Source: a virus
Taxonomy: Duplodnaviria > Heunggongvirae > Uroviricota > Caudoviricetes
Reading direction: 5' to 3' (one strand)
DNA: 25,936 bases
IMG/VR virus record: IMGVR_UViG_2778261085_000012
Location: 1 to 25,936 of that record
Shown: positions 1 through 4,121 of the stretch, piece by piece
Layout: every line of letters starts with the position of its first letter
Numbering within the stretch: position 1 is the first letter of the stretch
Program-made: the position numbers and the translations under genes
The notes under the pieces: generated by a model
What the model was told of the DNA's origin: nothing
The model's database searches: none
What the model saw: the letters and a program-made list of their open reading frames with translations, nothing else

Positions 1-570
1 CTATGCCGGAGGATATTTATTCATTCTTTCAGATATGTGAATGGAACGATTGTCGATTATATTTGTATCAAAAATAGTTACGGCAGGATGATTAAAACAG
101 ATAGAGTGTTTAGGTCTAAGTAAATGTAGTGTTTGCAATCTGGTTATCGCTGTGTTATCAAAATTTGAGAAGTCAACAACAAGATCTACATTCAGTTTTT
201 TTATCTTTGCTTTTAGTTCGTTAAATTTATTTTTCTCGTAAGATATAAAGGCATCCACGCCAACAATATCAGTAAAGAGGAATGATACTCTTGAAGGTGC
301 TATCACATATACCACCATACCGGATTTTTGAAGTTGTTTAATAAACCCTGAGGTAACGATGCCGTCACCAATGGCCTGCATGTGCATGAAAATGCACACT
401 GTTTTATAACTATCCGGCTGTAATGATGTTTTCCTTCTGTATCGCATTTTTAGAAATGCCAGTCTGGCCTTCGTCTTTATCTTTTTTGTTTTAATATTTC
501 GCTGTCTGTTAAGCTGTTTTAATGATGAAATAACATTCATAATGGTACCCTGAAATTCCAAATCACACAT
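1..570 (-). CDS. AT-rich cargo protein; resembles only the N-terminal domain of GT9 heptosyltransferase-type glycosyltransferases (possibly truncated)
   Basis: ORF 1..600 ends with a stop at 1-3; first codon of the track ORF appears to be TTG, first ATG about 570, start uncertain. Segment KTVCIFMHMQAIGDGIVTSGFIKQLQ...VVYVIAPS has the layout of a GT9 N-terminal Rossmann domain. GC content far below neighbouring phage genes. Occupies the P2 Z/fun cargo slot downstream of G. Confidence 0.4.
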   Translation of the reverse strand: MCDLEFQGTIMNVISSLKQLNRQRNIKTKKIKTKARLAFLKMRYRRKTSLQPDSYKTVCIFMHMQAIGDGIVTSGFIKQLQKSGMVVYVIAPSRVSFLFTDIVGVDAFISYEKNKFNELKAKIKKLNVDLVVDFSNFDNTAITRLQTLHLLRPKHSICFNHPAVTIFDTNIIDNRSIHISERMNKYPPA

Positions 571-634
571 GTCATCCGAAATGAGCAGGGTACTATACAA
601 AAAACTGGACTACAATGGTTTGAAATGAAAGCCT

Positions 635-1234
635 TTATGCTTGTTTACTCCTTGATTCCACTGGGGAAGCAGGCCACTCAATATCCGGTGCTCTTGATGT
701 ATCAACACGGTTCAGCAGCACTCGATACTTCTTCCATGCCACCAGTAACGATGTTTCTTCCTCTGTTGCAATATTCAAATCCACGGCATCCTGAAGTGGC
801 GAAATATGCTCACTGGCTACCTGCATGAGGCTGTTTTTTGTTTCTTCCGCCTCCCGTATCCGGAACACTTTTTCTGCTTCTGCATCTTTCACCCACGTTG
901 TGCCGTTCCACTTCTGAAACTCCCCTTCCGGGGATAACCAGGTGACATTTTCCGGTAATGGACCAAGTTCAGAAATAAATAACGCGCCCCCTGATGCCAC
1001 GTCATAAACCGTTTTACCACGATGATCTTCAACGAGATGCCAGGACGCCTTATCACTGTTGAAAATTGCCACGAAGCCAGCTGGAATATCTGGCGGAGCA
1101 ATATCAGTACTATTTGCAGGTAGACCTGTATGAGGTGGAATGTATGCATCACCTTCACCAATAAATTCATTAGTTCCGGCCAGCAGATTATAAATTGTTA
1201 TGGTCCGTGGTTGTTCACTCATTCTGAAATCCAT
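635..1234 (-). CDS. G: tail fibre assembly chaperone (Tfa, P2 gpG-like)
   Basis: N-terminus [48 protein letters not shown] and C-terminus [33 protein letters not shown] match enterobacterial Tfa proteins; track codon 1 appears to be GTG, ATG at codon 3 preceded by GAGG. Confidence 0.85.
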
Positions 1235-1242
1235 GTTCACCT

Positions 1243-2145
1243 CTACTTAATATCAGAGACAGAATATTGTTTATTGAGCGTATGGGTGTGAGCACCAATA
1301 ACGATGCTACTTCCGTGGCTATGTGCGCCAGAGATGACATTACCTACGGGATTTTCTGGATTAATCCGGTGTATATGCGAACCAGGGCGAAACCGGTTAT
1401 TAGCCTGATGTTGTATCAGTACATCATCAGCCTGATGTTCAGGGTTAATACAGACCTGCCCGGAACGGGAGCAATACGTCCGATAATCGCCGCATCCAAT
1501 ATATTTAGTATCCGCATAACGGCAAACAGAATTACCCGGACAGTATGCATATGTGCCAAATACTGCCGACTGGCGGGATTGTGCGTATTCCCAGTTAATT
1601 GATTCTGTTTTTTTATTAAAGTTATCCCATGCCTGCTTCATCTGCCGGGCAACACTTTCAAACGGAACCTGACCACATCCGGCTCCCATTGCAGGGAATA
1701 CCACCGTTTTTATTTTCCTGTCTGTCGTTGCGTGTTTATTGTGCTGAAAGATGGCAAGCAGAGCGGCCCAGGTTGCGTTATATACAGCGTCTGTTCCGTC
1801 AATTGTCAGCGGAACACGCATTGTTGGCGCATGTACCAGCCAGGGGTGATGATTATGCCCCGTTTCAATAACAAATGCAGAACCTACAGGCTGCTCGCCG
1901 AGATATTCACGAAGAATATGATTCTGAACGCGGGACTGTAACTGAGTACCGAAGAATGCGGTAATGGCGGCATCAACACCGCCATCCATCAGGCCGAAAC
2001 TGTTTGCCGCACTTACCATGCAGTCAAATTCCCTGATTGTTTCAAATGGCTTTCCGACAATATTCACATTATCTGCATTTGCGAATACCCGCTTAAATGC
2101 TTCAGCCATTTCTGTTACTGGTGCAGAAAGAATGAGCGTAATCAT
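1243..2145 (-). CDS. macro-domain (ADP-ribose binding/processing) protein with C-terminal HxH fibre-tip-like repeats
   Basis: Three macro-domain motifs: [65 protein letters not shown]-terminus SHIH...[18 protein letters not shown]. Start ATG overlaps the H stop codon (ATGA); stop lies a few nt before G. Confidence 0.7.
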
Positions 2146-4121
2146 GCAAGCCTCACAATATAGTTAAATGCGATGTTTTTGACGGTGTTTTCCGCGTTGC
2201 CATAAGCGGCAATGGTAATGGTGTGTGTATGCGAACCAATAGCGAGCGTATGTGTATGCGCACCTATTGCTACTGTGTGAGTATGAGCTCCTGCGCTTAA
2301 TACGCGATTACTTGCTGTCTTGCTTGTGTTAGTTGCATGCATTCCACCACCGGTACCGGGAGTTTCTGCGTATGCTGAAGTATTGTTGTAAGCAAAGTTG
2401 TGTGTATGTGCTCCGGTGTTATTTGTGGATTTAGTTCCGTAATCAAACGACGATGTGGTTTTCGTCCCCAAATCCGTACTGGATGCGCTGGCGCTGTGGG
2501 TGTGCGATTTAATGCCGTCCTGTTCCTGAGACAATACGGCTCGACCACTGGCAGGTTTGCCCTTAATCGTCCAGCCACGCATATCAGGGATCACGCCTGA
2601 CGGATAAGCGGCTGCAAGTTTCGGGTATGCAGATTTGTCAAAAGTCTGCCCCTGCATCAGGGCATAACCAGACGGAACGGTATCTGATGGCCACGGGATT
2701 GGTGCGCCAGGCGGATAAAACTGCTCTGATGGCGTATAGAGTGAATAAACTGTACCGTCCGTTAACCCTTCCGGCTTATTAGCAGAATATGCTGGTGACG
2801 TATGAATAGTCACGCTGGCATTACTGGTATAATCCCATTGAATATTTACACCAGTCGCATAATTTTCGATTGCAACGTAAATATCGTAAGTATCACCAGA
2901 TGTATTGACCCAGGCAAAATTTGTAAACCCTGTCGATGTGCGCTGCCATAAAGCACCAGTAATCCCCTTCGGATTACCATTACCTGCACGCAAAACAAGT
3001 TCAGATATACCTGCCTGTTGAGGTGAACCGACGTTATATCCAGCGCCACCAATCAACGTAATTGAAACAACAGAACTCGCCTGTGGCATGGTTACCGTTG
3101 CTAATTTGAACCAACCAGCACCACCGCTGAATGACATAGTTGTTGAGTTAAGCGTACCAATATCTTTCGGCGTCAGTGTAATATCCGCTGAAAGGGCCTT
3201 ACCATTCACCTTACGGGCAGAAGGTACCCGACCATTCGCATTGTCATTAGCTGCTTTCACTGCTTTCGGTGTCGCGGTAAGCGTTTCAGATGTGCTGTTA
3301 GTCGCGCTGCTTAGCTGGACAATCCCTTTTTGTGCTGTCGTAGCGTCCTGTGCAGTGTATTTCCCGTTAGCAAGGTCATACGCGGCCTTTACCGCTTTTG
3401 GTGTTGCGGCGAGCGTTTCTGAATCGCTGTTGGTGGCGCTACTGAGCTGGACAAGGCCTTTCCGCGCTGTAGTGGCGTCCTGCGCAGTATATTTCCCGTT
3501 AGCAAGGTCATATGCTGCCTTTACCGCCTTTGGTGTTGCAGCCTGTGTTTCAGACACGCTGTTAGTGTCGCTACTGAGTTGAACAAAGCCTTTTGCGGTC
3601 AGCGAGGCGTCCGGGTGACGTCGTGACTGTTCATGCTCTTTCAGTTTGTCATCCACGTAATCCACTGTGGCCATCACCATGGTGTTATCCACGGTAAGTG
3701 CCACAGTGGCAGTGCTGGATACGGTCAGAATGGTGCGAAATGTTTGTGCACGTCCTGATCCTTCGGCAACGGTAGGCTTGTAACTTTCGGCAGTATTGCC
3801 CACCGCGATTAAATCGCCGTGCTCATCAAACACACCAATTTCCCTGATCCAGAATCCGCCCGTTTCTGGAGGAATAACCAGCTCTGCAATAATGCGGTTT
3901 TGATGTGTTGCGTCCAGGATGACGCGATTAACAGTATGTCGCCACACCTCATGCACCAGACGGGTCTGCTTACTGTCTGGTGTGGGCAATGTACCGCCAC
4001 CGTCGCCCACGGCCATATGAGTCAGGCGGACAGGCTTACCATCTGGCGCGGCTGCCTGAGCTAATTTTTTGGCACCCGTATCGGTGATAACGGTTTTAAA
4101 TTTACGTGTTGTGGTACTCAT
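2142..4121 (-). CDS. H: tail fibre protein (P2 gpH-like)
   Basis: 659 aa; N-terminus [26 protein letters not shown]...HEVWRH...IAELVIPPE matches the conserved baseplate-attachment end of P2 H; three approx. 44-aa shaft repeats; C-terminal HxH repeats (AHTHN, AHTHT, AHTHT, SHTHT). Confidence 0.9.
3246..3593 (-). repeat. three tandem approx. 132-bp in-frame coding repeats in the fibre shaft of H
   Basis: Peptide repeat KG(F/L/I)VQLSS(D/A)TNS.SET(Q/L)(A/T)[25 protein letters not shown] occurs three times; the nucleotide repeats are visible directly. Confidence 0.75.

Follow-up and report, generated by a model that had tools for sequence, protein, structure and literature searches.

We describe here a macro-domain gene lodged in the tail-fibre cassette of a P2-like prophage, together with the likely origin of the histidine-rich tail of its product. 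The tail-fibre end of this prophage forms the left end of IMG/VR virus record IMGVR_UViG_2778261085_000012 (Caudoviricetes; positions 1 to 25,936, the whole stretch being called the window hereafter), where all genes of interest lie on the minus strand. Between the tail fibre gene H and the gene of the fibre assembly chaperone Tfa stands an open reading frame (ORF) whose product ends in His-x-His (HxH) motifs like those of T4 gp37-type fibre tips. From sequence comparisons and a structural model we propose, with a probability of roughly 0.55, that this product is an optional, late ADP-ribose-processing enzyme that keeps a fibre-derived HxH strand, probably for metal-dependent trimerisation. 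An earlier note on this DNA had reported that the C-termini of H and of the macro protein share the peptide IGAHTHTL, and had read this as the mark of a recombination joint or segmental duplication. The peptide proved to be real, and comparison across the family argues that the shared HxH belongs to the inherited build of the family and is no mark of a recent recombination.

Both peptides were found on the minus strand, at amino acids (aa) 619-626 of H and aa 283-290 of the macro protein. When the two proteins were compared by BLASTP, the C-termini alone aligned (14/36, E-value 9e-5 for a single comparison), and the duplication between H and the macro protein is real and non-random at the peptide level. 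At the DNA level, the reported 18/21 identity was recovered for the 21-mers at 2244-2264 and 1276-1296; over the full eight codons, 20 of 24 positions are identical and each of the four differences is a synonymous third position. Pairwise alignment of the C-terminal regions showed unrelated flanks on the two sides of this segment (10/45 and 7/36 identical). The best local DNA alignment had a score of 18, which none of 1000 codon-order shuffles reached. Once the peptides were kept and the synonymous codons redrawn from the usage of five genes of the window, 23% of trials attained the observed score, and the probability of at least 20/24 identities for the 8-mer was 0.27. The observed identity is thus within the expectation imposed by the peptide: the peptide duplication is real and the DNA segment is only its codon shadow. 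What had been called a near-identical DNA segment stands as a count, with nothing beyond the peptide behind it and half of the synonymous sites already different. Duplication at the DNA level was hence rejected on the local alignment and the two resampling controls.

It is extremely improbable that an exchange of the distal fibre recently copied H DNA into the macro gene, or that the HxH repeats acted as a crossover site, even if an identical 8-residue peptide, 18/21 shared bases and the mosaic nature of fibre cassettes would fit such an event. The DNA identity equals the synonymous expectation (P 0.23-0.27), four of the eight codons differ, the flanks are unrelated and synonymous divergence between the two motif copies is high. 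Further evidence comes from Escherichia coli STEC1585, in which H and Tfa are 97% nucleotide-identical to those of the window and the macro gene is absent, positions 1229-2140 being replaced by 4 bp (borders GCATGATT... and ...AACATGGATTTCAGA versus GCATAATGGCATTCAGA). The borders of this indel are therefore the ends of the macro gene, and the HxH repeats were discarded as indel borders. The tail is also found family-wide, in hundreds of homologues from Escherichia, Salmonella, Citrobacter and Erwinia, and shows no dependence on the fibre allele next to it: across 10 loci, no co-variation of the tail with the neighbouring fibre tip or Tfa was seen. For instance, an identical macro tail adjoins different fibre ends in the window and in the lambdoid prophage L003 (IGAHTHSV-AIGSHGHT), and the same Gifsy-type fibre end adjoins two different macro tails. 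Finally, this HxH has been lost from the E. coli allele that is most common (cluster P0001, 579 member sequences), where the sequence is IGTPIHTL. The exact 8-mer match is best seen as two consensus-like repeat units coinciding, not as the trace of a recent exchange.

The nature of the repeat became apparent from H itself. Its residues 455-659 are homologous to the T4 gp37 tip (PDB 2XGF, E-value 3.8e-73) in two stretches that include HxH motifs and the terminus; this homology places H in the gp37/Stf tip family and makes its copy of the shared peptide one unit of the gp37-type needle HxH repeat. The aligned 2XGF chain has seven HxH motifs, of which H keeps five, and the last three of these form a 9-residue tandem repeat. 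In an alignment of nine fibre tips from macro-bearing cassettes, the HxH triplet and the terminus are invariant. In gp37, three chains each give two of the six histidines that surround an axial iron ion. The gp37 HxH motifs are reported to bind seven iron ions (PMC11705849). Nucleotide homology (blastn) to the cassettes of L003 and of the P2-like prophage L002 breaks at ~2299-2400, between the N-side and the C-side HxH motifs, and the corresponding residues of H (aa ~575-608) are probably the hypervariable receptor-binding head of the tip. This head is much shorter than that of T4, and two of gp37's seven HxH sites are missing.

The tail of the macro protein follows the end of these fibres beyond the shared peptide. 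In the window allele it has three HxH in a G-x-H-x-H context (GSHIH, GAHSH, GAHTH), spaced by 18 and 11 residues as against 9 in the fibre, and ends in ...SVSDIK. Profiles made from 13 macro tails and 9 fibre ends were aligned with hhalign, giving an E-value of 1e-6 and a probability of 91% for the double HxH core; the whole C-terminal regions are collinear over 39 columns (E-value 8.3e-6, probability 84%), with the match running through ...NTVKNI. The macro tail stops where the fibre would go on with AFNYIVRLA, and it lacks that strand, the collar and the head. The suggestion that the macro protein carries a segment derived from the fibre tip is borne out by this collinear match to the last ~45 residues of gp37-type fibres. 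As far as so short a segment can show, the tail is a truncated collinear homologue of these residues, i.e. of the returning needle strand, from which it is probably derived and like which it probably works. Searches with phmmer gave no match for the C-terminal 105 aa among PDB sequences, and in 1.84 billion representatives the Cys-rich/HxH module (aa 190-300) was not found on other proteins, the hits being the family itself and two spurious repeat proteins.

Across the family the tail measures 33-64 residues from the HQxDD motif that precedes it and has one to three HxH, with frequent indels and erosions. Related phages with a macro ORF and no HxH segment, a possibility raised by the earlier note, were not encountered among full-length IMG/VR tails: 72/72 have at least one HxH (one in 16, two in 36 and three in 20). 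Conservation of the first HxH after HQxDD reaches at least 90%, and Salmonella alleles keep the 9-residue period of the fibre (IGAHTHTID-IGAHNHAIH-TGAYAYLH). The tail persists across genera at saturated synonymous divergence.

The remainder of the protein is a macro domain followed by a small Cys-rich part. Pfam Macro (PF01661) matches aa 44-169 over its entire profile (1-118 of 118; 68.2 bits for a cutoff of 22, E-value 7.7e-19), and the Pfam scan returned Macro and Macro_2 alone, with no fibre shaft, attachment or Collar domain. Several close homologues carry a precomputed match to Macro_2 (PF14519, Poa1p). A model obtained with AlphaFold2 (AF2) from an 80-sequence alignment had a predicted local distance difference test (pLDDT) score of 80-96 for aa 1-190, except for the block 111-120 (73), and below 50 for aa 233-300; an earlier model from 15 sequences was poor (pLDDT 54). 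The three-layer alpha/beta/alpha macro fold of the newer model was matched by Foldseek to 209 PDB macro structures at E ≤ 0.001, ADP-ribose complexes included. The best of them is yeast Poa1p/Ymx7 (1NJR), an ADP-ribose-1''-monophosphatase (E-value 6.7e-11, 237 aligned columns, 19% identity), followed by TTHA0132, macroH2A, DarG and MacroD2, and the nearest viral models are macro proteins of jumbo phages (Noxifer gp265, PhiPA3 gp271) and of giant viruses. Residues N48, G51, G55, G56, D58 and G158 are invariant in the 80 sequences, jumbo-phage relatives included. The ligand loops read N48-SFGLMD-G55-G56-V57-D58 and G154-A-G156-C-G158, with G154, G156 and G158 invariant or nearly so, and the second loop, like that of TTHA0132, is without the aromatic residue of the motif G-[VIA]-[YF]-G. 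Assigned from known MacroD-type motifs, these residues presumably make up an intact ADP-ribose site. Profile, model and conserved residues together show that this is a true macro-domain protein, with Poa1p as its nearest structural neighbour.

The Cys-rich part has the consensus YCPx4C...YIGxGDYRTYCxxSGxxCIxxxHQxDD, in which the family alignment shows full invariance at C202, C225 and C232 and at least 90% conservation at C208. AF2 placed a low-confidence beta-hairpin at 211-225. This mini-domain is probably a zinc-ribbon-like metal site, with the four cysteines acting as a small zinc site beneath the tail. Pairwise ratios of non-synonymous to synonymous divergence (dN/dS) came to ~0.1 in the macro domain, ~0.15 in the Cys-rich part and 0.3-0.45 in the tail, which shows that all three parts are under selection. 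Alignments show this three-part build, of macro domain, Cys-rich part and HxH tail, in every full-length homologue.

The macro protein has many relatives, with 1712 database clusters at E ≤ 1e-5, some of them with hundreds of members. The nearest ones are those of Escherichia, Salmonella, Citrobacter and Erwinia, and relatives are named either 'macro domain-containing protein' or 'phage tail protein'. We tried to take the second name at its word and rejected the macro protein as a tail fibre protein, because it has neither shaft repeats nor an attachment domain and because PHROG 2613, to which it belongs (E-value 1e-148), is labelled 'unknown function'. The labels 'tail protein' and 'phage tail assembly-like' of jumbo-phage relatives were likewise rejected as support for a place in the virion: the surroundings of Noxifer gp265 (L008, 3983-4630), FBKp24 gp159 (L009, 3914-4513) and phiRSL1 ORF054 (L007, 3971-4507) are non-structural, and these names look propagated from the enterobacterial family. 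An RNA 2'-phosphotransferase gene lies ~1.9 kb (five genes) upstream of FBKp24 gp159, a neighbourhood that would fit the ADP-ribose-1''-phosphate (Appr-1''-p) pathway. A PADLOC match to DarG was marginal (E-value 0.0048, 14.4 bits, 38 residues only), with DarG structures at Foldseek rank 11 and lower, and the protein cannot be assigned to DarG/AdfM. A separate observation concerns the predicted protein P0018 (463 aa, from an 8.4 kb Logan contig), in which plasmid-partition domains of the StbA/ParM kind (PF17989, PF06406, PF21523) are joined to a stretch that covers 80% of the macro protein (97% identity); this may be an artefact of assembly or gene calling, or else a phage-plasmid may carry a genuine fusion.

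The order gp37-type fibre, macro gene, Tfa is shared by four phage backbones, among which the macro gene moves with its cassette. We found this order in P2-like prophages (the window, L002, and phages Chuche and SEN4/SEN5), in lambdoid prophages (L003, Gifsy-1 and L014), in the P1-like plasmid L010, where the macro gene is a pseudogene, in the N15-like linear plasmid L011, and in other myovirus-type prophages of Erwinia and Citrobacter. In an IMG/VR sample of 80 loci, 74 had a recognisable macro start, 71 could be assessed upstream and 73 downstream. An upstream ORF ending in ...VRLA* and overlapping the macro gene by ATGA was present in 71/71, as it was in the Gifsy-1, SEN5, Chuche, Erwinia, Citrobacter and Salmonella loci, and Tfa followed in 70/73; two of the three exceptions (L054 and L082) have a disrupted macro ORF. 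The cassette that the window shares with lambdoid L003 extends from Tfa through the macro gene into the last ~480 fibre codons, and is interrupted only at the hypervariable head (~2299-2400).

The macro gene is an optional part of this cassette. It occurs in 128 of 5426 complete E. coli genomes (2.4%), and fibre/Tfa DNA of this kind in 4654. The gene is frameshifted or interrupted in L010 (6001-6892, plasmid pZ1323CEC0011-3), L054 and L082, where the fibre gene is intact; in L010 the annotated Tfa beside the broken gene is intact too. Broken macro genes next to intact fibre genes are consistent with the macro gene being dispensable for fibre function.

Judging from the sequence of the junction, the ATGA overlap couples translation of the macro gene to that of H, and a Shine-Dalgarno sequence, GAGGTGA, lies between the macro stop and the Tfa start, which are 8 nucleotides (nt) apart. 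No promoter-like or convincing terminator-like site was found between H and Tfa. GC content is 46% for the macro gene and for Tfa, 50% for H and 55-59% for the baseplate genes. An autonomous moron was rejected, because the macro gene has no promoter or terminator of its own, a GC content near that of its neighbours and ATGA coupling: the gene is co-transcribed and translationally coupled with the fibre gene. We also rejected a fusion of H and the macro protein by frameshifting or read-through, since inspection of CTT GCA TGA revealed the ATGA overlap alone and no slippery sequence.

The minus-strand gene series of the window runs from baseplate genes J and I through H, the macro ORF and Tfa to a gene resembling glycosyltransferase family 9 (Table 1). 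H combines a P2-type N-terminus, three Phage_fiber_2 repeats, a Collar domain and the gp37-type tip, and E. coli loci with 97% identity label it 'phage tail protein'. Downstream of the macro gene lies an ORF whose profile match identifies it as a Caudo_TAP chaperone (150.4 bits for a cutoff of 22.1); it directly follows the fibre cassette and is related to Mu gpU (PDB 5YVQ_B, E-value 1e-9). Window positions 16-700 are 99.3% identical to the STEC1585 locus, where the gene next to Tfa is annotated 'glycosyltransferase family 9 protein'. With its 35% GC and its place directly downstream of Tfa, this gene resembles a moron that modifies lipopolysaccharide (LPS). In other macro/Tfa cassettes the corresponding slot holds an acetyltransferase (L002, 869-1441) or an LPS GlcNAc-transferase with a DapH-like acetyltransferase (L010, 3676-5361). 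Antisense to H, a plus-strand ORF of 164 aa (3088-3582) is internally repeated and mirrors the three Phage_fiber_2 repeats; it is most likely a non-coding shadow ORF.

Table 1. Features of the fibre-macro-Tfa locus at the left end of the window.
Feature	Position (nt)	Strand	Evidence
Tail fibre gene H, 659 aa	2142..4121	-	Pfam Phage_tail_fib 5.6e-54, Phage_fiber_2 4.3e-58, Collar 3.3e-12
H aa 455-659, T4 gp37-type collar, needle and head tip	2145..2759	-	phmmer versus PDB 2XGF
H aa 609-637, three tandem 9-residue HxH units	2211..2297	-	IGAHTHTL at 2244-2267
Probable hypervariable head segment of H tip, aa ~575-608	~2299-2400	-	blastn versus L002 and L003; tip sequence comparison
ATGA overlap, H stop TGA / macro start ATG	2142..2145	-	Sequence
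Macro-domain gene, 300 aa, optional in fibre-Tfa cassette	1243..2145	-	Pfam Macro, E-value 7.7e-19
Macro domain proper, aa 1-196, Poa1p-like	1558..2145	-	AF2, Foldseek and conserved residues
Cys-rich mini-domain, aa 197-245	1411..1557	-	Conserved Cys; alignment
HxH tail, aa 246-300	1246..1410	-	hhalign to fibre end; IGAHTHTL at 1276-1299
Tfa, fibre assembly chaperone, 199 aa from ATG at 1234	635..1234	-	Pfam Caudo_TAP, E-value 4e-44
5' part of glycosyltransferase-9-like gene, 35% GC	1-~540	-	Identity to STEC1585 locus

These data suggest the following scenario. The tail would have arisen once, by partial duplication or capture of the 3' end of a fibre gene, and would since have been retained under weaker purifying selection, with three tails zipping together around metal ions. 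Three copies of the strand are needed to build an iron site and the tail is unstructured as a monomer, which points to a metal-dependent trimerisation stalk; a confident macro fold with an unstructured C-terminus is what one expects of a segment that folds only in an oligomer. The tail matches the very C-terminal end of the fibre, and the next gene downstream encodes Tfa; folding of the tail may therefore be assisted by Tfa, which possibly nucleates it as for the fibre. A trimerisation or chaperone-related role, as the earlier note had it, seems the most plausible one for the tail. One would then expect the macro enzyme to be a trimer, produced late and in amounts like those of the fibre. The weakest step of the scenario is the last one, in which the enzyme would be cytoplasmic, with an ADP-ribose derivative or ADP-ribosylated target as its substrate and counter-defence or repair as its role, and would not be a receptor-binding part of the virion. 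We favour such a late-acting, cytoplasmic ADP-ribose-processing role over one in the virion or in receptor binding, because the same fibre and Tfa are also met without the gene, neither an attachment nor a collar element is present in the protein, its jumbo-phage relatives lie among non-structural genes and AdfM, discussed below, sets a precedent.

Several observations weigh against this scenario. The homology signal between tail and fibre is short and compositionally biased (the 39 columns at a probability of 84%). HxH motifs are eroded in many alleles (GAYNH, GAYAY), one cluster has none at all, and the commonest E. coli allele has lost the one examined here. Among the three parts dN/dS is highest in the tail, whose function may therefore be weak or partly vestigial, and the tail has a low pLDDT in the single-chain model. 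Besides, the Macro_2 match of the window protein, at 24.0 bits for a cutoff of 27, is below threshold. One rival is that the tail gained its HxH independently, by convergence or low-complexity coincidence, the likeness being then compositional: the match is short and rich in His, Gly and Thr, phmmer finds nothing in PDB sequences and the spacing departs from 9 residues. We regard such an origin as very unlikely, given a profile alignment that is collinear beyond the HxH units, the Salmonella alleles with the exact period of the fibre, and a gene invariably adjacent to a gp37-type fibre gene, which provides both opportunity and context for capture. It is unlikely, to a lesser degree, that the tail is a leftover of the insertion with no present function on a monomeric macro enzyme. 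Its dN/dS, the frequent loss of individual HxH, the variation in length and the existence of truncated clusters, some annotated as partial sequences (e.g. P0023, 255 aa), all suit a vestige. A dN/dS of 0.3-0.45 is still not neutral, the first HxH is conserved, every full-length IMG/VR tail keeps at least one, and the tail outlasts saturation of synonymous divergence between genera.

The place of the gene next to a fibre also invites a role in the virion: a Tfa-assembled macro trimer could sit on or beside the fibre as an extracellular enzyme or lectin acting on a ribose/phosphate surface polymer, comparable to the esterase and depolymerase domains of other receptor-binding proteins. In T-even phages, the slot of the macro gene is held by gp38-type adhesins; translation of the gene is coupled to that of the fibre gene, its product bears a fibre-type tail, relatives go under the name 'phage tail protein' in many database entries, and LPS-modifying morons adjoin the cassette. 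We nonetheless consider a virion accessory quite unlikely. The same fibre and Tfa, at 97% nucleotide identity, occur without the macro gene, as do most E. coli cassettes (128 genomes with it, 4654 with fibre/Tfa DNA); the protein has neither the collar strand nor a fibre-attachment domain, jumbo-phage relatives lie in non-structural neighbourhoods and, to our knowledge, no known macro substrate is extracellular. A more specific idea draws on the type II Thoeris system, in which the signal His-ADPR is read by a macro domain and side tail fibres folded with chaperones are reported to determine activation (bioRxiv 10.64898/2026.06.04.730250). The macro gene might encode a counter-defence enzyme tethered, genetically and perhaps physically, to an immunity trigger. 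A macro enzyme coupled to fibre and Tfa could destroy or sequester ADP-ribose-derived signals, or remove ADP-ribosylation, at the very time and place at which the trigger arises, and the HxH tail could permit Tfa-assisted trimerisation or mimic the fibre end. This version is speculative and we hold it to be improbable.

Comparison with known systems helps to place the reading that we prefer, of an enzyme carrying a fibre-derived strand. For the fibre end, the closest counterparts are the T4 gp37 tip and the lambda Stf/Tfa type. Residues 455-659 of H are a direct homologue of the T4 gp37 tip, down to IGAHTHT(V/L)AIGSH(G/T)HTIT. The macro tail shares with that tip the unit G-x-H-x-H-T and collinearity with the last ~45 residues, whereas it consists of the returning strand only, without collar, head, ascending strand or AFNYIVRLA; it has one to three partly eroded HxH where fibres have an invariant triplet, and it sits on an enzyme instead of a shaft. 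For the macro domain, the closest counterpart is Poa1p: it is the best structural match, Macro_2 is the second Pfam match, and it is also the assignment of many family members and jumbo-phage relatives. In contrast to Poa1p, the macro protein has additional Cys-rich and HxH modules and is encoded in a tail-fibre cassette. Among phage proteins, AdfM (PhiKZ gp104 / PhiPA3 gp108) is a macrodomain that removes from DNA the ADP-ribose added by DarT2, as a counter-defence (PMC13309987). A stand-alone phage macro enzyme used against a host system is the feature of AdfM that invites the comparison. AdfM is DarG2-like, whereas the window protein matches DarG weakly and has PhiPA3 gp271 and Noxifer gp265 as relatives; AdfM, moreover, lacks a fibre-derived tail and is encoded outside a tail operon. 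The gp38 adhesins of T2/S16-type phages, like other small genes placed between fibre and chaperone genes, lie in the same slot downstream of the distal fibre gene and are tied to the fibre cassette. They show no relation in sequence or fold to the macro protein, and gp38 adhesins bind fibre tip and receptor, and the fibre described here, by contrast, occurs without the extra gene.

In full-text literature on macro domains together with tail fibres, tail fibre assembly or phage tails, we found no description of this family, which would thus represent a widespread and so far undescribed architecture of enzyme plus fibre remnant. It also carries a caution for annotation, as identity between HxH segments is no proof of recent recombination and the name 'phage tail protein' is misleading here. 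If our reading is correct, the family offers a clear example of a fragment of a structural protein, the iron-binding HxH strand of gp37-type fibres, reused on an enzyme, and it places a predicted ADP-ribose-processing activity in the most frequently exchanged module of temperate phages. An enzyme tethered to the immunity trigger would, if that idea held true, be a new type of anti-defence that combines an enzyme with the remnant of a structural protein. And should the enzyme indeed counter ADP-ribose-based immunity or modification, host-range cassettes would carry immune evasion along with receptor specificity.

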